From a virus (lineage: Duplodnaviria > Heunggongvirae > Uroviricota > Caudoviricetes), in the IMG/VR virus record IMGVR_UViG_2684623189_000006: a DNA stretch of 38,661 bases; one strand, given 5' to 3'. The notes beneath the pieces are model-generated. The model saw only the letters and a program-made list of their open reading frames with translations. It did not search any database and had not been told where the DNA came from. A program made the position numbers and the translations under genes. Positions 10,145-38,661 of this stretch are shown here, piece after piece (position 1 is the first letter of the stretch; each line of letters opens with the position of its first letter).

Positions 10145-10717
10145 TCAGGGGGATTCATTACTCTTATTTGCCGGAAATTTTCTATAAATTGTGGAAACAC
10201 CCACATCAAAAATCAGTGCAATACGCTGTCTTGATTCTCCGGCCTCGAGTAAGCGTCCAATCTGTGCCCACTGTTCGGTGGTCAACTTAGGACGGCGTCC
10301 ACCTACTCTGCCTTTATCACGAGCTGCAGCCAGCCCCGCCCTGGTACGTTCAACTATCAGTTCGCGTTCCATTTCAGCCAGGGCCCCCATGACATGAAAA
10401 AAGAAACGGCCCATTGGGGTGCTGGTATCAATACTGTCAGTCAGGCTTCGGAAATTCACGCCACGCTGACGCAACTCTTCTATCAGCGTAACAAGATGCC
10501 GCATACTGCGCCCCAACCTGTCCAGCTTCCAGACAACCAGAGTGTCTCCAACCGATAGTGTCCTGAGCAGTTTTTTAAGCCCCGGTCTGTCGGGCTTAGT
10601 GCCACTGATTTTGTCCTCAAAAATCCGCTCACATCCCGCGCAGTTCAGTGCATTACGTTGCAAATCTGTGTTCTGGTCATTTGTTGACACGCGTACATAG
10701 CCAATAAGCATGATCAA
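10145..10717 (-). CDS. Serine recombinase, DNA invertase (Cin/Gin/Hin/Pin family)
   Basis: N-terminal GYVRVSTNDQ catalytic serine motif, resolvase-like core and C-terminal HTH (GVSTIYRKF). It sits next to a segment bounded by inverted 26-bp sites. Confidence 0.9.
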   Translation of the reverse strand: MIMLIGYVRVSTNDQNTDLQRNALNCAGCERIFEDKISGTKPDRPGLKKLLRTLSVGDTLVVWKLDRLGRSMRHLVTLIEELRQRGVNFRSLTDSIDTSTPMGRFFFHVMGALAEMERELIVERTRAGLAAARDKGRVGGRRPKLTTEQWAQIGRLLEAGESRQRIALIFDVGVSTIYRKFPANKSNESP

Positions 10718-11139: not shown

Positions 11140-11580
11140 ATGCAGAAATATATTTTCAGTGCCGATAAAAATGCGTTTTTCCCTGTGGAGCTTAAAATCG
11201 CTTATCAGGAATCCGGCGAATGGCCCGGTGATGGAATCGAAATTGACGACACTGTTGCCGCCGAATTTATGAAGGAAGCACCAGAAGGAAAATACAGAGG
11301 TGTCATCGACGGAATGCCTGCATGGATTGATATTCCACCGCCAACTCATGAGGAACAAATTGCCGCAGCCGAACTGGAAAAGCAGCAATTGATTAATCAG
11401 GTCAACGAATACATAAACAGTAAGCAATGGCCTGGTAAAGCGGCGATTGGTCGCCTGAAAGGTGAGGAACTGGCGCAATATAATTTGTGGCTGGATTATC
11501 TGGACGCACTGGAGCTGGTCGATACTTCCGGTGCGCCAGATATTGAATGGCCTACGCCTCCGGCAGTTCAGGCCAGATGA
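11140..11580 (+). CDS. Tail-fibre assembly protein (for alternative cassette)
   Basis: A 146-aa ORF with a tail-fibre-chaperone-like C-terminus (...DALELVDTSGAPDIEWPTPP), paralogous to the G-like protein on the other strand. Confidence 0.75.
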   Translation: MQKYIFSADKNAFFPVELKIAYQESGEWPGDGIEIDDTVAAEFMKEAPEGKYRGVIDGMPAWIDIPPPTHEEQIAAAELEKQQLINQVNEYINSKQWPGKAAIGRLKGEELAQYNLWLDYLDALELVDTSGAPDIEWPTPPAVQAR

Positions 11581-12145
11581 CGTCCGGCGCTGTGCTCGTA
11601 TCTGTTGCCGTCACCGCGTCAATATAATCCAGCACAGCGTTAAGTCGGGTGTTTTCTGGCTGCGTCAGCTTCCGCCCGGCCTGTAATTTCAGTTGAATCA
11701 GACTGATGGAAGCCATTGCAGCATCAATCAGCGACTGGCGCCGTGCTTCTGCCGCTTCTACTGCGGCGCTATGCTGTGCCTCGGTATCCGTCACCCATTT
11801 CTCACCATCCCATTTATCGTATGGCGTTAACGGTGAAAGCGTGACATAACCGTCTTTGATGGCACCGATATAATCCACTGTAACAGCTGCGCCATTTTCA
11901 GTTGAGTAAACGGTCTCATTGCGATGGTCTTCTTCATGGCTCCATCCCTTACCCGTAAATACTGCCACTTTTCCCGGAATGTTTTCGCTCGGGTCAATAC
12001 CAGTGGAACAGGCGGGCATACTTACTCCAGTATTAATATATTCATCAGACCAGCCGGTATATTCATACGTTACTGCATTATAATAAAAACAACGCATATC
12101 GCCCGGCACTGTAGCCAGCCCATTTTCATCAAAAACAGGTTTCAT
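11552..12145 (-). CDS. G: Tail-fibre assembly protein G
   Basis: A 197-aa ORF immediately after H. Its C-terminus (...DAVTATDTSTAPDVIWPELPEA) is paralogous to the ORF at 11140-11580. Confidence 0.8.
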   Translation of the reverse strand: MKPVFDENGLATVPGDMRCFYYNAVTYEYTGWSDEYINTGVSMPACSTGIDPSENIPGKVAVFTGKGWSHEEDHRNETVYSTENGAAVTVDYIGAIKDGYVTLSPLTPYDKWDGEKWVTDTEAQHSAAVEAAEARRQSLIDAAMASISLIQLKLQAGRKLTQPENTRLNAVLDYIDAVTATDTSTAPDVIWPELPEA

Positions 12146-25279: not shown

Positions 25280-25879
25280 CTACTGTTTCTTAGAAGTAAT
25301 GTAGCGTCTTACTACATCAGTTATTGTAGCAAAAGGTGCCGAAAGCAAGCTTATATCACCTTTAAAACCAAATTTTTTATAGTGGTCAGCAACTTTTTGA
25401 TTCAGGGCTTCAGGGATCCGAATCTCTTGACACCCAACCGCGCTACCAAAAAGATATACCGCCCACAATGTAACCATGAACATGTTGCCGTAAAGAGGGT
25501 GCTCTACGTCATCATCTTTCACAAAAGATTCCACAAAATGGATCTCTATGACTCCAGCGTCCTCGTCAAAGGTGCACATAGCTGCGCCAGAAGGGATATG
25601 CCTAAGTGGCCCCGCAAGGAGCTTCAAACAAAATTCAAACTTATCACTTCGATTGCCAAACCGAGAAAAACCATAATCCCATTCTAGCTGAGCGTATCCT
25701 GTGGTCAGGATCACATAGTCTTCATCACTGATTGGACCAACAGCCAACGGCATCTTCAAAGTATCGAGGAGAAACTGAAGGTTACTTATACTTTGACTGG
25801 CAATCTGCTCTAAGTTCAATTCTCTGTCCTTCATGCTTACGACATTAAAGGCGACTACTTTAATGTCATTTTCGGACAA
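25280..25879 (-). CDS. Hypothetical protein (199 aa), cargo between Q and cos
   Basis: Long ORF with no recognisable family. The start is uncertain: TTG at 25879 or an internal ATG. Confidence 0.5.
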   Translation of the reverse strand: MSENDIKVVAFNVVSMKDRELNLEQIASQSISNLQFLLDTLKMPLAVGPISDEDYVILTTGYAQLEWDYGFSRFGNRSDKFEFCLKLLAGPLRHIPSGAAMCTFDEDAGVIEIHFVESFVKDDDVEHPLYGNMFMVTLWAVYLFGSAVGCQEIRIPEALNQKVADHYKKFGFKGDISLLSAPFATITDVVRRYITSKKQ

Positions 25880-26104
25880 AGACTATAAATCTTTAATGAA
25901 ACAATAGCAGAACCTTTTAAAGGTTTGCTACCTATCACTGCAACTTGTGACAGAACACTAAATCTACAGCCAACTCCGGAACACATTCAACATTTATTTA
26001 AATCCCTTCAAACAAGATTGCACAAAAACGCGCCCTCCCTTTCAGAAGAAAACCATCAGCGGGCCTGAGGCTAAGTGAATTTTACTATTTCAACCCGCGG
26101 CGTG

Positions 26105-26130
26105 CGCTCGTATCCCCGCCACGCCTGCCC
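26105..26130. other. Probable cos site (cohesive-end region)
   Basis: The minus strand reads GGCGTGGCGGGGA..., which matches the first 13 nt of the P2/186 cohesive end as I recall it. Confidence 0.5.
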
Positions 26131-26505
26131 GCTTTATGTAGTGGTTTTCATGCACCTGCATGACATGAGCAAAAGCCCGCCAGTTCTGGCGGGCCTTAAC
26201 AAAAACGAGCCTCAAACGTTCATGCAAACTCATGCAGCATATACATACACTACATCAACAGCATCCATTGCTATCATTTCCAGTTCGCTTCCTACAACAT
26301 CATTGCGAATAGTTATGTTACCAAGCGGCTTTTTCATACCTTTTCGGCATGACACTTCAGACGCACCAATACTGACGTGTAATGCTTCCCCCGCAACGTC
26401 AACCCACTTAATGGTAATTTAATGTAGTTGCATGAGACGAAAAAATCTCCATAGTTGACAGACTCTATGAATGCAGCATCACTAGCAAGCATGAATAAAC
26501 ATGCA

Positions 26506-27210
26506 TCATCTAACAGATACTTTTGCATAAATCAAAGGCCTATCCGAAGAGCCATTTTTACGTACGACCACTCCACTGATATCATGGTTTTTACTAAGAT
26601 CTCGTAATGCGGCGCACAATGCCTTGTTGACATACCCTAGATGATTGTCGTTTTTCGTTACTAATATGGCCAGCGGATCAACAGTATTGGTATCTTCATT
26701 GCGCAATATGACTTCATCACCAATTGATATCTCGTCAAGAGCTAGACGCCCTTCCTTAATCATGTGTCTCGTTCCGGCGACCTCCATGACATAATCAAAA
26801 GGTGGCCGAATAGAAGACAAGTCTGGGACAAAATAAAAACCATCACTAGCCACTTTTCCGCCAGTACAAGCGAGCAAAACGAAGTCATTCTCTCTAAAAT
26901 CAGCAGGAAGACGAAACGTCAGCAAGTAATCGGCAAAATCTTCTCTTTTCCTGGAGGGTAACCTTCTTGAAAAGGTTTGCATAACGTCTTTGCGATGAGT
27001 CGTAACTTTTATGTCAAAAGCAGGAAAACCGTGAAAGCCTTTATCCCCAGCTTTAGCAAAATCTTTGCTATCCGTAAGATAATTAAACTCGTAGCCTTCA
27101 GACTCATCTTGAAGAAGTTCACCAACGACATAGCGAGAGCCGCCGTCGGTCGGTTGCCATGTCAGTAAGAGCCTACTTGGCATGGGAATTTTTTCTATTA
27201 AGATAGTCAT
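26506..27210 (-). CDS. HIRAN-like domain protein (234 aa), third gene of cargo operon
   Basis: The C-terminal region (DPLAILV...LGYVNKALCAALRDL...GVVVRKNG) resembles the HIRAN fold motif. Its ATG overlaps the upstream stop (ATGA) and has an AAGGTG Shine-Dalgarno. Confidence 0.5.
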   Translation of the reverse strand: MTILIEKIPMPSRLLLTWQPTDGGSRYVVGELLQDESEGYEFNYLTDSKDFAKAGDKGFHGFPAFDIKVTTHRKDVMQTFSRRLPSRKREDFADYLLTFRLPADFRENDFVLLACTGGKVASDGFYFVPDLSSIRPPFDYVMEVAGTRHMIKEGRLALDEISIGDEVILRNEDTNTVDPLAILVTKNDNHLGYVNKALCAALRDLSKNHDISGVVVRKNGSSDRPLIYAKVSVR

Positions 27211-28118
27211 GAAGTAACACCTTTAATCAGTTCAATACGCATGTTTGTTACACGAACAATCCATGCAGCACGTTCTCTAGTCAGCGGAACAGGGCAGTTT
27301 ATTTCCGTCAACTCCGCAAAAGTTGAGTCCCAAAAGTCATGGTTCAAACGAGCCAGTCTTTCAGCTACCCGCTGTTTTAATTCTTCTTTTTTATCACAAA
27401 GTTCTTTGATTAACTCTAAATGACCTAATCTCTGATACTCATCTTTGCCCAGAGTTTTACGCAAATGATGCTTTCCCCGGCTAACATGCTCCCTGAGTCT
27501 ATGATCGGTCCAATCAGCAACATGTTCCGGAAAGCGTTCGTAGCATAAGCTCGTACCATTATCGAAAAATGGTGCAAGCTGACACTCGCTGGTTAAAGGG
27601 GAGAAGATAAACCCCCAGTTTTCTTGATGTCTATCTGTATTACCTATTACTGCGTCAAAGAGAGCCATATTCTCCAACCACTCAACATAGTCAACTTTAA
27701 GAGCTTTCGCGATAATCCTCAGCCCTTCAATGGAATGCTTAGCTCCTTTCTCACGATCAAAATTTGGATCTCTTCGAACAAAGTAATCACCAGCGGGAGC
27801 AAATTTCTCATAATCTTTATGATGAAACCACTCAATGAGGGCCCCGCAAAACGTATGCCCCAAATCATTAGTCTTTAACGAAGGAACTGCTTTGGGGACA
27901 TTAAAACCAAGCTGCAATCCAATCCTGTAGGCAACGATCTCACACCAAAATTGATCTGGGTATTTTTTAATACTTCTCTTAAAAAGATACGGCCACGATG
28001 CTTTGATACCATGGGGGGCAACATCAGGGGAAATAACCAATGCCTTAGAGCGAGCACCAACAGGATACTGTGCGAAAACATCTAGCTCAGTCCAATAGGT
28101 TACATCTAAGCAATCCAT
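27207..28118 (-). CDS. HipA-like / PI3K-PI4K-like protein kinase-fold protein (303 aa)
   Basis: Carries the catalytic-loop-like motif DAVIGNTDRHQENWGFIF (D-x-H-x-x-N) typical of HipA-like Ser/Thr kinases. Confidence 0.55.
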   Translation of the reverse strand: MDCLDVTYWTELDVFAQYPVGARSKALVISPDVAPHGIKASWPYLFKRSIKKYPDQFWCEIVAYRIGLQLGFNVPKAVPSLKTNDLGHTFCGALIEWFHHKDYEKFAPAGDYFVRRDPNFDREKGAKHSIEGLRIIAKALKVDYVEWLENMALFDAVIGNTDRHQENWGFIFSPLTSECQLAPFFDNGTSLCYERFPEHVADWTDHRLREHVSRGKHHLRKTLGKDEYQRLGHLELIKELCDKKEELKQRVAERLARLNHDFWDSTFAELTEINCPVPLTRERAAWIVRVTNMRIELIKGVTS

Positions 28119-28133
28119 AGCTAAGTCCTATAT

Positions 28134-28688
28134 TTATTTTTTATTTAAATTCATATAGATGTGAGAAACCTGTGCGATCTGAAATAAAACATCATCGAAT
28201 GCTGTGTGCCTAATGCCAGTGAAATTTTTATCAGCATGAGAAAAAATTCCTTTGCTTTCACCAAGTGCTAAGATGGTTCTAACGTCAAGAGTATCTCTGA
28301 ATGACCATGGGCAATCCAGACCCGCCTGTAACAGGGCATGATGCATGATCGTGCAGTCAAACTCTTTCCCGTTTCCCCACACTTTTACTCGGCCAGTACG
28401 ATTATGAAGAATAAATGCCACAAATTCATTCAGAACCTCTAAAAGGTCCTTAGTGCCATCAAAATTTTCGTTTTTAGCTTCAGTACTTTGATTCATCCAC
28501 CACTTTACAGTAGAGGGGGCAATGGTTCTGCCTGCTTGTTCATGATCAAGCGAAATAACTTGATAGAAACCCGGACCAATCTCGCCAGTCTCCGGCACGA
28601 AAAAAGCCGCACCAACTGAAAGGATATAAGCTGTTTTTTCAACATCCAATGTTTCTATATCTAACATTACATGATTCATAAGAAGCAA
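28134..28688 (-). CDS. DEDDh-type 3'-5' exonuclease (DnaQ-like fold), first gene of cargo operon
   Basis: N-terminal MLDIETLD (Exo I motif) and C-terminal HTAFDDV (H-x4-D, Exo III motif). The start is uncertain: TTG at 28688 or ATG at 28679. Confidence 0.6.
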   Translation of the reverse strand: MLLMNHVMLDIETLDVEKTAYILSVGAAFFVPETGEIGPGFYQVISLDHEQAGRTIAPSTVKWWMNQSTEAKNENFDGTKDLLEVLNEFVAFILHNRTGRVKVWGNGKEFDCTIMHHALLQAGLDCPWSFRDTLDVRTILALGESKGIFSHADKNFTGIRHTAFDDVLFQIAQVSHIYMNLNKK

Positions 28689-29175: not shown

Positions 29176-31590
29176 TTAATACAGGTTCCGCCACTTATCA
29201 TCTTCCTGCAAACGCTGGTTCCGATAGAAGATACGCAGGCCTGCTCCTGACGGAATACTGCCACCGCGAAGGAGTAAATCGACCTCTTTCTCGCTGCCAT
29301 CAAATCCTCTTGACTTCAGTTCATAGACGAGCTGCTGACGCTGATACTCTGTAATTCGCTGTTTGTAGTCTTTACGCCGTTTCGGTTTCACCAGGCGTAA
29401 TCTTGCTGCCAGTTCCTGGCGCTCTTTTTTGCTCATACTATGCAGGTAATCGTGCAACTCCTTGTCATCCATACAGGTAATGTCAGTTCTGGTATCCCCA
29501 TCTGTTGATTTATCTTTCTCCTGTTGGTTCAAATTTTCAGCAAGGGGACAGTTATTGCCACGAGTCCAAGGGGCGCAAGCGCCCTGGTCGGCTGCCGCCT
29601 CCTGAACGTCAACGGCCTTACGAACCATTTTCCACTTCACTGCATGAGTACAAATCTTGCCCTCTGCAATGGGTGACCAGATGCCATAAATACGAATACC
29701 GTGATCGCCATAGGCGGTCGGCTCTTCGTTAATTTCATAAGCTGTTCTGATAAGGTGATATTTGCGGGGAACCAGTACGCCGCCCTGCTTCATAATGTAG
29801 GTGGCAAAACAACCAGCATCAGCAGCAGCCAGGATTGCATCAAGGCGCGGGTTATCCAGTACCGGCGCACCTGCTTTTTTGTCCCCCTGTTGCCTTGCCG
29901 CCTGACCAGCCAGCAATCGCAGTTCACGGTAAGCCTGACGCCCCGGAATGCCAAAGAAGCGGAATTGCTGAACACGATGCAGAGACGCCCAAGCATTAAC
30001 GTATTCAGCATTATCACGCAGGGATTTCCCCGTTTCCTTGCTGATCTCGCCAGCCAGACCACGCCCGTCCATGTTCTTACTGATGTATTTCGCGATGTAG
30101 CTTGTTGGCGTACCTTTGCGCGGGTTAATCAACTCAGACTTAAAGCGCGGCCCAGTGTTATTGCCCAGCTCCTCGCGGTCTTCACGGATGGCAAACTTAC
30201 GCAGTAATGCAGTGATGGCGCGGCGGTCTTTTTTGCGCATAAAACACAACAGGTGCCAGTGAACTGTACCGTCATGATGCGGCTCAGCCACCCGCACGCC
30301 ATACCAGCGCAATCCGGCTTTGTGCATCGCCTTACGAAATGCAGCAAACATGCCGACCAGATAATCACTACTTTGTCTTACCGTCGCATTTGTCCAGGTT
30401 GGGTTGGGCCTGCCGTTATTTAGCGTGGAATGGAAACGTGACGGACAGGTGATGGTGTAGAAAACGGCGCAGTCACCGCGCATTTCCGCGATAAGCTCCA
30501 GGCCTTTAACACAGGCCATCATCTCATTGCGGCGATGCGCAGGGTTGCTGCTGCTGGCGTTTACCACATCCTCCATGTCCAGCGTGTCGCCGTCTTCGTT
30601 CACCAGTTCATGAGAACGAAAAAACTCCAGCGACTTACGGCGCTGCTCACGTTTATGCATCACGGCTTCATAGCTGACATAGGGAGATGCTTTTTTGCTG
30701 ACCAGGCAAACAGCACGCAACTGCTCTTCCCGCCATTCGCAACGCATCTTCCATAATTTCCGGTACCACCAGTCGGCGCACAACATACGCGCCAGCGAAC
30801 CCGGAATGAGTTCATAGGGCACGGGTTTACGGCGGTTTCTTTTCCGGCGGAGTTGATCAAACGCAGGCGGGATGACATCCAGACGCAGGGTTTCCGCTGC
30901 CACCTTTTCCCATGTCTTGCGGATTTCTTCTGGCTTAACGTCATCGGTGACATACAAATCGCCACAAGCTGCATCAAGGCACATGCTCATATGCGCAGCG
31001 ACAAGGGTAGACAAGCGTTTCACCTGATCCTGACTCATTTCAGGCAGGATCAGCAGGCCGTCCAGCCCTTCATGGCTTGCCATAAAGCGAAAAGAAGTGG
31101 ATAGCTGACTGTCGCGTACATGCTCCAGTCGTTCCAGACATGGCTTAATCGTCTCACGCAAATAGCGGGAATAAGCCTTTGGCCTGCCTAGGCTGCTGAA
31201 GTATTCAATACGTTGCAACAGCGGCTTGCTGATATGGGAAGGCTGGGCATTGACGTCCGCCAGAATGACCATATCTGGATTAAAACGCTGCTGCTCATGC
31301 GCCAGCTTTGCCCGGCTAATGAGCTTATCCTGCTCCATTTCGCGTTGGACAGGATCACGGGATTCATTAAAGAAATAACGCTCCCAGACCTGATCACTCA
31401 GTGCCTCGCGGCGCAGTTGTTCCTGCTCGTTATCGGCAGCGTACAGAGTGATCAGGTTTGAAAGCGCAGAAACCGGCGCAACTTCCGCCGGGTCCAGATA
31501 AGGGTTAATAGCCTTTTTCGGGCTGTTCCATGAGAATGCTGCGGCGGCCTCGTTAAAGCCGCTGCAGTTGTTCATATCAGCATGGCTCAT
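29176..31590 (-). CDS. A: Replication initiation protein A (rolling-circle nickase)
   Basis: An 804-aa ORF; P2/186 gpA-like sequence and position. Confidence 0.85.
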
Positions 31591-32443
31591 GCACGCACTC
31601 CGTACACGGCAGAACTATCCACGCCACGCGAAGGCTCAAATCCCACCCAGCAGCGCGCCCAGAAACAGCGATGATTTCTGTTGCAGATTTACTCTCACCA
31701 GCTGCTACGCCGATGCTGCGTTTTGCCTTGATGTAGTGGTGAGTAAAATTGCGATACAGCGAACGGATCAGGGATGTGTCACTGTTAGAAACAATGACCG
31801 GATGTCCTTCTGATGACCGATGTTCAAGAACGGATGCCAGGTGATACTGGTCATCTTCAGTGAAGCCGTCAGTGTGATAACCGGAAAACGTGCCGTCATA
31901 CGGCGGATCGCAATACACCACATCCCCCGCCTTCAACATCGCCAGCGTTTCATCAAAGCTGGCGCAGATAAACGTTGCCCGCTGGGCTTTTTCTGCAAAT
32001 GCGCGAATTTCTTTTTCTGGGAAATACGGATTTTTATAATTACCGTAGGGAATGTTGAAATGCCCGCTCTTGTTATAGCGACATAAACCACGGTAACCGT
32101 GACGATTGAGATACAGGAAATATACCGCTTTCATGAAATCAGTAATTTCATTTGAGTAATTAAACTCCTGCCTTATGTTGTAATAAGCCACCTCCCTGTT
32201 TGCTTCCTTAAATAAAACTCTGGCGCGAGATATAAACGATTCACAATCAGCGGCAACCTTTTTATAGAGGTTGATTAAATCAGGATTAATATCCGCAACC
32301 AGATAGCTTGGATAATCCGTCTCCATCATCACAGCACAGGAACCCGCGAAAGGTTCAACCAGTCGCGGGCCAGCAGGAAGGTGTTTTTTCAGTTCGGACA
32401 TAATTGCGGTTTTATTTCCCGCCCATTTCAGGATGGTGCTCAT
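31577..32443 (-). CDS. DNA adenine methyltransferase (Dam-like, D12 class)
   Basis: N-terminal LKWAGNK and DPPY catalytic motifs. Start taken at the ATG at 32443 (MSTILKW), overlapping the upstream stop (ATGA). The 3' end overlaps the A start by 14 nt. Confidence 0.8.
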
Positions 32444-33855: not shown

Positions 33856-34022
33856 TTTGACTTTCTCCGTTTCCCCGTGGTCAATTCAGACAGCAATTCA
33901 TCTTGTGAACGGCACGGATGCCAGCGTTTACCATCCTCACCCATGATCCAGCCGTGACCGTAGTGCATTGCCGGGCTTTGTTTTACCAGCAGCGATGCAA
34001 ATGATGGTTCTTTCGTCAGCAT
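33726..34022 (-). CDS. Hypothetical small basic protein downstream of cII (Fil/Dhr position); 3' part doubtful
   Basis: ATG at 34022 overlaps the cII stop. The N-terminal 60 aa look protein-like; the C-terminal part overlaps the 74-aa ORF. Confidence 0.35.
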   Translation of the reverse strand: MLTKEPSFASLLVKQSPAMHYGHGWIMGEDGKRWHPCRSQDELLSELTTGKRRKSKCMQRKVKWFISFVTEGRVIQYLKMICSVVIRRCRAMAVTFSR

Positions 34023-34918: not shown

Positions 34919-35797
34919 ATGAATTTCAAAAACGGAGGACAGGCAGTCATAACGCGCATGCTTGAAGCGTATGGATTCAAGACGCGGCAAGCCCTATGTG
35001 AACAGTTCAATGTATCTGCAAGTACTATGGGAACGCGCTGGATGCGTGACGCATTTCCTGCTGACTGGGTAATTCAGTGTGCAATTGAAACAGGAGCATC
35101 TATAGAGTGGCTCTCATTCGGAAAAGGCGTGCCATTTCCTAAGAATACCGAAGTTCCCGCTAAATTAGAGGAACCAGCATCATTGGTTCAATATGTTCCC
35201 AAAGCCACCACCAACGAGAACCCAATTGTGAACCATCCAAATCTGGATTCAGGTGGACGTAATGCGATAAACAGGCTAATGGAAGCGTATGGCTTTAAAA
35301 CAAGACAAGAACTTGCCGACCATTTGAATGTGTCTAAAAGCACAATGGCGAATAGATACTTGCGAGACACATTCCCAGCTGACTGGATCATAAGATGCTC
35401 GTTGGAAACAAGAACTTCTCTTTTATGGTTAGCAACTGGGCGCGGGCAAAAACTTGGAAGCGAAGAAAGTGAAGCTTTAGAAATTCCTAAAGTAAAACTT
35501 ATTGACAATCAAATTTTCGATGCTGGTCATTTATTGATAGATAAGTCCCTGCTTCCTCATTTTAATGATTTACTCGCAATTGAAGACGAACATTGCATAA
35601 ATATTGCACACATGAATAAAGCTAATGTTGAAGACGGAAGATGGATTGTTCAATACCAAAATAATTTCAAGTTAAAACAAATTTTTCTATTACCTGGAGG
35701 CAATCTTCGAGTAACAGACGATGATTTAACATTTGATTGTGAAAAAGAAGATATAAAATTAGTTGCCAAAATTTTCTCACAGTACCGTACTATTTAA
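34919..35797 (+). CDS. cI: CI-type immunity repressor (186 CI family) with tandemly duplicated N-terminal DNA-binding domain
   Basis: Two about 60-aa repeats (MLEAYGFKTRQ...ETGASIEWLSFGKG and LMEAYGFKTRQ...ETRTSLLWLATGRG) followed by a 186-CI-like C-terminal domain. Confidence 0.75.
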   Translation: MNFKNGGQAVITRMLEAYGFKTRQALCEQFNVSASTMGTRWMRDAFPADWVIQCAIETGASIEWLSFGKGVPFPKNTEVPAKLEEPASLVQYVPKATTNENPIVNHPNLDSGGRNAINRLMEAYGFKTRQELADHLNVSKSTMANRYLRDTFPADWIIRCSLETRTSLLWLATGRGQKLGSEESEALEIPKVKLIDNQIFDAGHLLIDKSLLPHFNDLLAIEDEHCINIAHMNKANVEDGRWIVQYQNNFKLKQIFLLPGGNLRVTDDDLTFDCEKEDIKLVAKIFSQYRTI

Positions 35798-35812
35798 TCT
35801 TGAGGCATAGTA

Positions 35813-36841
35813 ATGGATTTTATAAAAAAACTCGAATTTGGAAATTATACTCTCCGTTTTGGTGATGATGTTTTGCTAGACTATTATGATGAAATTGTTT
35901 TCCCCTCTTTTTTGGAGATGGCAAACATCCGCAGAATATCTGACAAATCAGAGTTCTTTTTCATTGATACTGAATGCGTCATACTTGACGAAGAAGCAAC
36001 ACCCCCAGTACTCGGAATTAAAGGTCGGATTATTAAGAATACATTATTAACCAGAGAACAAGTATTTGATGGTGCTGATTTGGTTGAAGATCATCAAGAG
36101 CTTGAAACAGCCCCGAGCTCTTTCTTTCTTCTAATATTAAACACTCACAGATTAATTCTTTGCAAGGAAGTTAGTGGTGCTCCCACAATTCAAAACTTTC
36201 AGTCAACAAGTCAGTGTTTCTTAAACATAGAATATGAAAAATACATATCTCATTTATACGAAACCGCACAAGAAGAACGCAAAGAAAACCCTGACTTACC
36301 TCGAGTCACTAAAAAAAGCTTACGGAACGAAATCAAACGCCCGAAGCTAAGAATAACGCCGTTAACTGACAAACAAAGCCTAGAGCAATTTATTGATAAT
36401 TTTAATAAAATCCAAAATGTCTCAGTAAAACTTCTCCCTACAAATCAAGAAGAAATTGATAACGACGAATTTTGGGAGTCACTTGAAAGTGCCGGAGACG
36501 AAATGGGAAGTATTTCTACATCTATTCGCTTTTCAAACACCGATTCAGGCTTGAATCATGGTGCTGTTTTAGAACAACTCACATCAGCAACCAGATTGGC
36601 TAATTCAGGAATAAATATTAAAGGATATGATGACAATGGTGATATAATCAAAGGTAGCAATGATGACTTTGTTTTGTTAAGTGAGATGAATGAATTATCA
36701 AAGGATACGGTAGTAGCTGCAAATGAAAGTTATGAGCGGTATGAAAATCTTGTAGAAGAAGGTAAGATATCTCTACCCCGTTCTCTTTCACAAAAGACGA
36801 TTAGAATTATTAGCAATATATATGAAAGGTTTGGTCGATGA
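35813..36841 (+). CDS. Hypothetical protein (342 aa), AT-rich cargo gene 1 between cI and int
   Basis: Low-GC ORF with a GAGG Shine-Dalgarno and no recognisable family. Its stop overlaps the next start (ATGA). Confidence 0.6.
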   Translation: MDFIKKLEFGNYTLRFGDDVLLDYYDEIVFPSFLEMANIRRISDKSEFFFIDTECVILDEEATPPVLGIKGRIIKNTLLTREQVFDGADLVEDHQELETAPSSFFLLILNTHRLILCKEVSGAPTIQNFQSTSQCFLNIEYEKYISHLYETAQEERKENPDLPRVTKKSLRNEIKRPKLRITPLTDKQSLEQFIDNFNKIQNVSVKLLPTNQEEIDNDEFWESLESAGDEMGSISTSIRFSNTDSGLNHGAVLEQLTSATRLANSGINIKGYDDNGDIIKGSNDDFVLLSEMNELSKDTVVAANESYERYENLVEEGKISLPRSLSQKTIRIISNIYERFGR

Positions 36842-37518
36842 TAAATAAAATAGATGCTAAAGAAATAACCAAAGAGAAAAACCTTTGGGATGTTTACTTG
36901 CTCTGCAAACGGATTACTATTAGTACATTCCATATTTGTATTTTGCTCACAGCATCTATTTTTTTATTAACAAACTCTTTTTTTATTGAGAAGGATATGT
37001 CTCATTTAGTATCTGACATTAGAAACTGGGCTTTGATTGGTTTTAACTTTGCAGTGACAACCTTAGGTTTTCTCATTGCTGGTTTCACAATATTTGCAAC
37101 ACTATCCAAACCCGAGATGTTTCTTCAGATGATGTCAATACAACATAAAAAAACACAGATGCCCACGTTAAAATATAACTTTATGGCATTTATGAAAGTT
37201 TTCATCTCATTTATTACGTTTACTTTCATTTATCTAATAATAATTCTCTTTTGTCAAAAAGATGGAATAATTGGCAATATAATTGATTTATTTCCATATT
37301 CAAAATCGATAAAAGAATTAATTATTAAATTTGGATACTGTGTTATAGGGACTAGCCTTATTTACTTAGTGTTAGTAGTAAAGACATTTATTTTTAATAT
37401 CTACGCTATCATAATGAATAATATTCGTTGGGAGTTATACATTAAAAGAAAAGAACAAAGACTTTCCAGTAACAAAGAGACAATCAATAAAAACATAGAT
37501 GTAACTAAAATGCATTAA
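36838..37518 (+). CDS. Hypothetical integral membrane protein (226 aa, about 4 TM helices), AT-rich cargo gene 2
   Basis: Four long hydrophobic segments; translationally coupled to the upstream gene. Confidence 0.6.
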   Translation: MINKIDAKEITKEKNLWDVYLLCKRITISTFHICILLTASIFLLTNSFFIEKDMSHLVSDIRNWALIGFNFAVTTLGFLIAGFTIFATLSKPEMFLQMMSIQHKKTQMPTLKYNFMAFMKVFISFITFTFIYLIIILFCQKDGIIGNIIDLFPYSKSIKELIIKFGYCVIGTSLIYLVLVVKTFIFNIYAIIMNNIRWELYIKRKEQRLSSNKETINKNIDVTKMH

Positions 37519-37555
37519 ACACATAACATATGTATAGTTATCCAATCATCATACA

Positions 37556-37583
37556 TTGACACTGTATAAAAAAACAGTATAAA
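37556..37583 (+). promoter_or_regulatory. Sigma70-like promoter with embedded LexA box upstream of int
   Basis: TTGACA (37556-37561), a 16-nt spacer and TATAAA (37578-37583). The spacer contains CTGTataaaaaaACAG (CTGT-N8-ACAG). Confidence 0.5.
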
Positions 37584-37608
37584 TGCTCTCCACTGGAGGG
37601 CATTTTTT

Positions 37609-38661
37609 ATGGCAGTACGAAAACTCACCACAGGGAAATGGCTTTGCGAATGTTACCCCGCCGGACGAAGTGGGCGTCGTGTGCGTAAACAATTCGCCAC
37701 CAAAGGCGAAGCTCTGGCTTTTGAGCGTCACACGATGGAAGAAACCGAATCAAAGCCCTGGCTGGGCGAATCAGTGGATCGTCGAACCCTGAAAGACGTG
37801 GTTGAGCTATGGTTCAAATTACATGGTAAATCTCTGACTGCTGGACAGCATGTCTATGACAAATTGCTGCTGATGGTTGACGCTCTAGGCAATCCTCTTG
37901 CAACCAATCTCACCTCTAAAATGTTTGCCCACTATCGAGATAAACGCCTGACAGGTGAGATCTACTTCAGCGAGAAATGGAAGAAAGGAGCCAGCCCGGT
38001 CACCATTAACCTGGAGCAAAGCTATCTAAGTAGTGTTTTTAGCGAACTATCCCGCCTGGGCGAATGGTCGTATCCAAACCCACTGGAGAACATGCGAAAA
38101 TTCACCATCGCAGAAAAAGAGATGGCATGGCTTACCCATGAGCAGATTGTTGAACTGCTGGCTGATTGCAAACGTCAGGACCCAATTCTGGCACTGGTAG
38201 TCAAGATATGCTTAAGCACAGGCGCACGCTGGCGAGAAGCAATAAATCTTACCCGATCACAGGTGACTAAATACCGAATTACCTTTGTAAGAACGAAGGG
38301 GAAGAAAAACAGAAGCATCCCTATCAGTAAAGAGCTTTATGAAGAGATCATGGCGCTTGATGGGTTCAATTTCTTCACAGACTGCTATTTTCAATTTTTA
38401 TCCGTGATGGAAAAAACGTCTATCGTGCTCCCTCGCGGTCAACTCACACACGTTCTGCGCCATACGTTTGCGGCGCACTTCATGATGTCGGGTGGAAACA
38501 TTCTGGCCTTACAAAAAATTCTCGGACACCACGATATAAAAATGACTATGCGTTACGCACATCTGGCACCGGATCATCTAGAAACGGCGCTCCGTTTCAA
38601 TCCTCTGGCAACGCTGCCAAGTGGCGACAAAGTGGCGGCAGCGGTTGGCATTACCCCGTAA
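37609..38661 (+). CDS. int: Tyrosine recombinase / integrase (P2/186 family)
   Basis: A 350-aa ORF with the C-terminal catalytic region ...LSTGARWREA...HVLRHTFAAHFMMSGG...LGHHDIKMTMRYAHL (R...HxxR...Y) and a GGAGGG Shine-Dalgarno. Confidence 0.9.
   Translation: MAVRKLTTGKWLCECYPAGRSGRRVRKQFATKGEALAFERHTMEETESKPWLGESVDRRTLKDVVELWFKLHGKSLTAGQHVYDKLLLMVDALGNPLATNLTSKMFAHYRDKRLTGEIYFSEKWKKGASPVTINLEQSYLSSVFSELSRLGEWSYPNPLENMRKFTIAEKEMAWLTHEQIVELLADCKRQDPILALVVKICLSTGARWREAINLTRSQVTKYRITFVRTKGKKNRSIPISKELYEEIMALDGFNFFTDCYFQFLSVMEKTSIVLPRGQLTHVLRHTFAAHFMMSGGNILALQKILGHHDIKMTMRYAHLAPDHLETALRFNPLATLPSGDKVAAAVGITP

Follow-up and report, generated by a model that had tools for sequence, protein, structure and literature searches.

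A probable Rex-type phage-exclusion module carried between cI and int in a 186-like Escherichia coli prophage

In coliphage 186 the stop codon of the immunity repressor gene cI abuts the start codon of the integrase gene int, and the pL lysogenic operon, cI-int-orf69, contains them both. The DNA analysed here (the window, 38,661 nucleotides (nt) in all; IMG/VR virus record IMGVR_UViG_2684623189_000006) holds a 186-like (Peduoviridae) Escherichia coli prophage, integrated adjoining rcdA/ybjJ, in which two further genes, A and B, stand between cI and int. What does such a pair do inside an immunity operon? A reading of the DNA letters alone (the sequence-only reading), which had rightly stated the adjacency of cI and int in phage 186, took the pair for a horizontally acquired sensor and membrane effector of abortive infection or superinfection exclusion. 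Our analysis supports this idea and makes it more specific. A-B, the cargo of the prophage's cI-int slot, is probably a two-component module of Rex type for phage exclusion (abortive infection). We infer this function from fold, architecture and context, namely the predicted RexA/RdgC fold of A, the four predicted transmembrane (TM) segments of B with both ends inside, the order cI-A-B that equals cI-rexA-rexB of lambda, the presence of defence genes as other alleles of the slot, and defence-island neighbours outside prophages.

The genes and spacers concerned, in window coordinates, are:

34919-35797, + strand: cI immunity repressor, 292 amino acids (aa); matches Pfam Phage_CI_repr in two stretches (E 4e-59) and Phage_CI_C (E 2e-16); RefSeq "phage repressor protein CI"
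35798-35812, + strand: cI-A spacer, 15 nt, with a GAGG ribosome-binding site (RBS) at 35802-35805, 7 nt 5' of the A start codon
35813-36841, + strand: gene A, 342 aa, soluble and acidic, with a RexA/RdgC-like predicted fold; proposed cytoplasmic sensor/activator
36838-37518, + strand: gene B, 226 aa, predicted inner-membrane protein with four TM segments, N-in/C-in; proposed membrane effector
37519-37608, + strand: B-int spacer, with a promoter-like TTGACA (37556-61), a 16-nt spacer and TATAAA (37578-83), and the int RBS GGAGG (37595-99)
37609-38661, + strand: int, tyrosine integrase (Pfam Int_N and Phage_integrase), the right flank of the cargo slot

Both open reading frames (ORFs), and the ATGA that the stop codon of A shares with the start codon of B at 36838-36841, were exactly as the sequence-only reading had described them; as read in the sequence, this overlap amounts to translational coupling. 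Its division of the pair into a soluble and a 4-TM protein was borne out by hydropathy, which found no hydrophobic segment in A and four in B. As it had also stated, neither protein has an assignable motif: A and B were unmatched in Pfam, PADLOC, PHROGs and NCBIfam, and a profile search of all PDB chain sequences gave no match for either. Single-sequence searches returned 167 homologues for A and 280 for B, and a profile of A searched against 1.84 billion representative proteins matched 693 clusters (50% identity) at E<=1e-3, 354 of them at E<=1e-30. Families of this size show that A and B are real genes and not chance ORFs, and among the best 150 of the 693 clusters nearly all matches to A were full length, at ~330-345 aa.

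AlphaFold2 produced a confident model of A (predicted local distance difference test (pLDDT) 87, predicted template-modelling score (pTM) 0.85) from an alignment of 42 sequences. When this model was compared with the PDB using Foldseek, lambda RexA (8TWQ) was the top and sole significant match (E 8.4e-7, probability 1.0), and the next entry followed at E 0.03. The order of elements in the predicted model, which runs from an N-terminal sheet through a long helix and a central alpha/beta domain to C-terminal helices, is compatible with the split globular domain and inserted dimerisation domain of RexA. As judged from the model, A has the fold of lambda RexA, i.e., the RexA/RdgC fold, RdgC being the structural relative reported for RexA in the paper on the solved RexA structure (PMC11077077). 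Low confidence was confined to two parts of the model (residues 78-83 and 92-97, pLDDT <50). Both fall in a loop of residues 78-98 (window 36044-36106) in which L79, R81, Q83, D93, E96, L97 and E98 are invariant or nearly so, and this conserved, flexible loop is a candidate interaction or sensing surface.

The hydrophobic segments of B span residues 28-50, 64-88, 113-138 and 163-194 (Kyte-Doolittle). Lysine and arginine residues number 6 at the N-terminus, 4 in the TM2-TM3 loop and 8 at the C-terminus, compared with 2 and 3 in the two remaining loops, so that by the positive-inside rule B is predicted to be a 4-TM protein whose two ends and TM2-TM3 loop face the cytoplasm (N-in/C-in). The AlphaFold2 model of B is a helical bundle (pLDDT 82.6) with helices that agree with the hydropathy segments. 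Conservation is strongest from TM2 through the cytoplasmic loop to the start of TM3, with GFLIAGFTIF and KYNFFAFMKVFI as the conserved sequences within TM2 and TM3, and in short cytoplasmic motifs at each end (N-terminal TxEKxLW, C-terminal RWE). The invariant core of TM2 (window 37066-37101), GFLIAGFTIFAT, resembles the conserved TM2 of the RexB family, AILIAALTFLIG (lambda RexB residues 54-65), and in both proteins TM2 is followed by a basic cytoplasmic loop; as the hhalign score is not significant (P 0.16), the TM2 likeness is no more than a hint that B and RexB share an origin. In one B homologue of 285 aa (P0180) the membrane protein continues into a C-terminal HTH_73 domain (E 2.7e-11), an unusual combination of a DNA-binding-like domain with a 4-TM protein.

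The order cI-rexA-rexB of lambda (PDB 8TWQ; PF15969, PF15968) is mirrored by cI-A-B, and the pair has the architecture of RexAB-type systems, in which a soluble protein of about 280-370 aa is followed in the same orientation by a small multi-pass membrane protein. A 4-TM partner is common to B, RexB, Sbash gp31, CarolAnn gp43, Butters gp31 and RexBpp, and the reported topology is as in B. The soluble component of a Rex system would be expected to dimerise and to bind DNA non-specifically. The lambda and prophage pairs differ in other respects: identity is ~11-12%, and A and B are unmatched by the RexA and RexB hidden Markov models; A has 342 aa compared with 279 for RexA, and B has 226 compared with 144 for RexB; and A-B resides in a 186-like peduovirus whereas RexAB is lambdoid. 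The A family is also far larger and taxonomically broader: it forms 693 clusters at 50% identity, and RexA forms 36 at 90% identity, two thresholds that differ. The named members of the RexA clusters are all Enterobacterales except one partial record labelled Mycobacterium tuberculosis.

The genomic context of the pair is that of defence cargo in several respects. Of 5426 complete E. coli genomes, 1119 have the integrase family of this prophage, and other sampled loci at the rcdA site hold different genes between cI and int:

loci L031, L032 and L036, cI-int slot at the rcdA site: only a 63-aa ORF
loci L033 and L035, same slot: a 323/325-aa protein with a weak DUF2207_C match
locus L034, same slot: a DUF4041 protein that matches PD-Lambda-1 (E 5e-120)
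locus L002, same slot: a KAP NTPase that matches PDC-S20 (E 7e-171)
locus L003, same slot: a three-gene set that matches PDC-M11A/B (E 2e-130 and 5e-48)

PD-Lambda-1 is a validated defence gene, and PDC-S20 and PDC-M11 are PADLOC candidate systems. The cI-int slot in E. coli is a cargo hotspot, its content varying between conserved core flanks. A core lysogeny role of such genes in 186-like phages, which the sequence-only reading had named as one finding that would speak against its proposal, was considered and rejected because phage 186 and most related E. coli prophages lack the pair, which occurs in 13 of the 5426 complete E. coli genomes. A cI-integrase hotspot has been described for P2-related K139-like Vibrio phages (Rousset et al. 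2022, PMC9122126), and an integrase-primase region holds 8% of P2 defence systems (NAR 2026, PMC13586616). The slot described here likewise has variable cargo with conserved phage-gene flanks; A-B is unrecognised by PADLOC, and Rex systems are mentioned in neither paper.

A and B behave as one unit. Among the fetched loci long enough to show both genes, B directly followed A in 24/24 complete genomic loci and 15/15 viral contigs, with a distance from A stop to B start of -14 to +5 nt at the 15 loci with a readable junction. Over 20 loci, pairwise identity in A correlates with that in B (r 0.88, a value reached in 0 of 5000 Mantel permutations). The two genes are thus translationally coupled, always adjacent and co-evolving. 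The same cI-A-B-int arrangement was found in 186-like prophages of Serratia (identities of 59% for A and 52% for B), in Kosakonia (80% and 78%) and in the classified Klebsiella phage 4LV2017 (42% and 40%). In the record of the latter (L038, NC_047818), the B homologue (40%) lies at 1083-1850, in an unannotated interval with int on one side and the annotated A homologue on the other, and 11 related Klebsiella phage records bear no annotation whatever.

Outside the slot, the pair was found in several other settings. In Vibrio parahaemolyticus (L029/L030, 1-8623) A-B stands at the end of a corticovirus-like element with a PM2-type (P2_N/P2_C) capsid protein, indicating that the module is not restricted to tailed phages, and in one strain of this species it adjoins a Zot-encoding filamentous phage. 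In V. harveyi the pair lies beside Druantia DruA-E, away from phage genes, and in Cobetia it has a pair of Eco57I/DruE-like helicases on one side and GmrSD on the other. Within 6 kb of A-B at the 17 non-186 loci, the neighbours included DruE-type helicases, methylases and specificity subunits of type I restriction-modification (R-M) systems, mad3, PsyrT and PbeA. The A-B module is mobile, passing between the cI-int slots of prophages and defence islands of chromosomes.

This distribution bears on whether A-B is a conserved pair with a non-immune role, for example in membrane or DNA housekeeping, its link to mobile elements being incidental and its likeness to RexA convergent or a very ancient RdgC-like inheritance. 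We consider this distinctly improbable, as patchy occurrence (13/5426 E. coli genomes), AT-richness, residence in a defence-gene hotspot and defence-island neighbours are what one expects of accessory immune cargo rather than of housekeeping genes. RdgC itself (PDB 2OWL), unlike A, is a stand-alone chromosomal housekeeping protein with neither a membrane partner nor an association with mobile elements.

At a further locus, in Dickeya ananatis (L027, 6420-8683) and beside smpB, A-B adjoins a 96-aa piece of the C-terminal domain of cI; with neither an integrase nor any other phage gene, this locus resembles the end of a cI-A-B-int prophage that has survived as a domesticated remnant. Retention of the pair in a decayed prophage could reflect addiction. 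A-B might in that case be a toxin-antitoxin-like pair, or alternatively act in membrane-level superinfection exclusion (Sie) by blocking DNA entry, and so stabilise or shield the prophage in ways other than abortive infection. Small prophage membrane proteins that block DNA injection do exist, e.g., P22 SieA and T4 Imm. However, no known antitoxin or Sie partner has the RexA/RdgC fold predicted for A, PADLOC matched none of its models for toxin-antitoxin or Sie systems, and selection for defence explains the retention in Dickeya equally well. Addiction or entry exclusion is therefore a very unlikely account of the pair.

We then consider the boundaries of the cargo. The two genes are strongly AT-rich, as the sequence-only reading had claimed, with a GC content of 0.354 for A and 0.278 for B compared with 0.483 in int, roughly 0.55-0.60 in the structural genes and 0.507 over the window as a whole; the AT-rich block extends beyond A-B to take in cI (0.40). 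On the left, homology to other E. coli prophages ends within cI, at ~35440, which links the C-terminal half of cI to the A-B cargo in E. coli. On the right, backbone homology is back at 37526-37549, i.e., 8-31 nt past the B stop codon, or at the int RBS in some genomes; in the 1119 E. coli genomes the break points fall at query positions 8-12, 26-32 or 78. With 292 aa and a tandem pair of Phage_CI_repr helix-turn-helix (HTH) domains, the cI protein encoded here is a long form compared with cI of phage 186 (192 aa); other long forms occur in CFT073 (308 aa), ExPEC XM (299 aa) and Klebsiella phage 4LV2017 (313 aa).

Travelling with the C-terminal half of cI in E. coli, and placed inside the immunity operon straight after that gene, the module might tune the lysis-lysogeny switch or induction of its own prophage and have no part in host defence. 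RexA has a documented, RexB-independent role in the lambda switch (PMC11077077). Against such a role, the same pair occurs away from cI and int, with Druantia, R-M and GmrSD genes as neighbours; it is missing from phage 186 and from the majority of 186-like prophages; and where a cI protein is present, that protein may be just 44-77% identical. A conserved function shared by pairs without cI, or with a diverged cI, cannot depend on one particular repressor, and the occurrence of A-B away from any repressor argues against switch modulation as its conserved role. We judge a function confined to the switch to be distinctly unlikely. Some modulation of the phage's own switch in addition to exclusion, as is seen for RexA, is the second uncertainty of the exclusion reading, the main one being the polarity of signalling.

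If A-B is a Rex-type exclusion module, cytoplasmic A, probably a dimer, would sense a product of a heterologous phage or a replication or recombination intermediate. A would then engage the conserved cytoplasmic face of B, made up of the TxEKxLW motif, the TM2-TM3 loop and the RWE motif, whereupon B may oligomerise or open and so dissipate membrane potential and ATP. Growth would stop and the infection would abort. The same mechanism has been proposed for lambda RexAB, Sbash gp30/31 and CarolAnn gp44/43, and has experimental support for RexABpp of Pseudomonas putida (PMC12894663); these four systems together supply the precedent from experiment.

The soluble proteins of the Actinobacteriophage pairs Sbash gp30/gp31, CarolAnn gp44/gp43 and Butters gp30/gp31 have 337-372 aa with a weak DUF4747 signal and are accompanied by a 4-TM protein. 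These pairs are expressed in lysogens and defend against heterotypic phages; expression occurs with the repressor in lambda and CarolAnn and from an own promoter in Sbash. Sbash gp31's central cytoplasmic loop is critical for function, and B is best conserved in the corresponding TM2-TM3 loop. The Actinobacteriophage pairs differ from A-B in host phylum and have no detectable sequence similarity to A or B. In mycobacteriophage papers DUF4747 (PF15931) is the weak signal that links Sbash gp30, CarolAnn gp44 and Butters gp30 with RexA. Protein A of the window has no match to it at E<=1, whereas some relatives of A, like the Actinobacteriophage proteins, give matches below threshold: P0096 reached 21.5 bits (E 1.7e-4) against a gathering threshold of 27 bits, and precomputed sub-threshold PF15931 matches were recorded for about 20 of the 120 A homologues listed. 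A transitive link through distant relatives of A (E about 1e-60) was tried and rejected, as none of them matched DUF4747 or RexA.

RexABpp (P. putida prophage P1, PP_5643/PP_5644; Sci Rep 2026, PMC12894663) is not a close relative either. Its termini, taken from published primers (RexApp, MHRTATFV...VYNKQSRLMV; RexBpp, MLIGQLANP...LYYLGYKLQE), are unlike those conserved in the A and B families, so that A-B is not simply RexABpp, a comparison that covers the primer-derived termini only. The validated RexBpp likewise gave no sign of homology to RexB (PF15968).

Several results weigh against the exclusion reading. A has no match at E<=1 to the RexA models of Pfam (PF15969) or PADLOC, on which lambda RexA scores 1e-97 and 9e-110, respectively. 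Comparison of A profiles (42 and 145 sequences) with RexA (single sequence or 33-sequence profile) using hhalign gave Prob values of 1.4%, 0.85% and 2.6%, the last of these (P 0.018) for the 145-sequence A profile against the 33-sequence RexA profile. For B, neither Pfam nor PADLOC matched RexB (PF15968), hhalign against RexB gave Prob 0.5% and 0.4%, and Foldseek against BFVD returned no match at E<=0.001, with RexB absent among the matches listed. A 165-aa Sbash protein with the length of gp31, at rank 20 in BFVD (E 3.2), was rejected as evidence because it was not significant. As the hhalign results are not significant for either protein, no sequence homology is claimed, and a collinear, low-confidence alignment and a common PS-F motif are hints only. 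A is also net acidic (59 aspartate and glutamate against 38 lysine and arginine residues), a poor apparent fit to a DNA binder. A promoter and terminator scan found fewer promoter-like sites than shuffled sequence and was uninformative for regulation. Finally, according to the summary in PMC12894663, the roles are reversed in phage Butters, where the soluble protein is the effector.

Given the reversed logic of Butters, which is opposite to the one proposed here, the direction of A-B signalling is provisional. In an arrangement of that kind A would be a toxic or antiviral effector that B sequesters and silences until infection, as Butters gp30/gp31 are described to operate (the PMC12894663 summary and PMC7542560), and both the gene architecture and the predicted fold of A fit this polarity equally well. 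On the other hand, B is as conserved as A, notably in TM2 and TM3, which is beyond what an anchor needs, and the membrane protein is the effector in 4 of the 5 described Rex-like systems (PMC12894663). We regard the reversed polarity as unlikely, and retain the exclusion reading with A as the sensor and B as the effector.

With respect to expression, the scan found neither a promoter nor a terminator on the + strand of the cI-A spacer, and no + strand terminator from cI to the end of B save a weak stem within B. Because the gap between cI and A is 15 nt, with no room for a promoter or terminator, and because the genes share a strand with no convincing terminator between them, A-B is probably transcribed together with cI from the lysogenic pL promoter and would thus be present in the lysogen. 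Cargo placed in the repressor-integrase slot of E. coli 186-like prophages would lie inside the lysogenic operon and could be co-expressed with cI without a promoter of its own. The promoter-like element before int is near the sigma-70 consensus, and a 5-bp inverted repeat (ACTGT/ACAGT) lies inside the spacer. This element lies in backbone DNA that most E. coli prophages having this integrase share, suggesting that int may not need read-through across the cargo.

RexAB is the oldest known abortive-infection system, and its mechanism, from the trigger to the gating of the channel, has been unsolved for 70 years. A-B is most likely an unannotated, widespread relative of RexAB and apparently represents a large lineage of Rex-like systems, with at least 693 clusters (50% identity) that are mostly from Gammaproteobacteria and include one member labelled Myxococcaceae. 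Only five Rex-like systems are counted as described (PMC12894663, 2026), and our literature search found no mention of the RefSeq accessions of A or B and no Rex-like pair described in 186-like or P2-like phages. It is tempting to go further and to see in this family an unrecognised major branch of Rex-type immunity, in B a new effector family unrelated to RexB, and in RexAB the tip of a large superfamily of RdgC-fold sensors with interchangeable 4-TM effectors; we hold this wider view tentatively, as a real possibility that falls somewhat short of probable. If it is true, Rex-type immunity is widespread in Proteobacteria, many natural variants and conserved motifs (the A 78-98 loop and the TM2-loop-TM3 part of B) become available to dissect the dialogue between sensor and effector, and a missing model can be added to defence-annotation tools. 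Such a finding would be unsurprising in kind, since prophage hotspots are known to carry abortive-infection cargo, but would still widen the Rex family substantially.

Other parts of the window merit brief mention. The prophage is 100% identical to that of E. coli strain SF-173 across the region compared, and in the SF-173 record RefSeq marks a DNA adenine methylase as frameshifted and Fil as a truncated pseudogene (window ~31587-32443 and ~33867-34022), which suggests that the prophage may be partly decayed. A second AT-rich cargo block (window 25280-28688, - strand, GC 0.40-0.46) adjoins replication gene A (29176-31590) and encodes a HipA_C-like protein that matches PDC-M03A (27207-28118), a HIRAN-domain protein that matches PDC-M03B (26506-27210), an Rv2179c-like 3'-5' exoribonuclease (28134-28688) and an unmatched 199-aa ORF; this block looks like the classical P2 GpA-GpQ defence hotspot with a candidate system. 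A serine resolvase/invertase gene (Resolvase and HTH_7) and a tail-fibre assembly gene adjoin each other in DNA of lower GC content (window 10145-10717 and 11552-12145), which suggests an invertible tail-fibre segment that determines host range.

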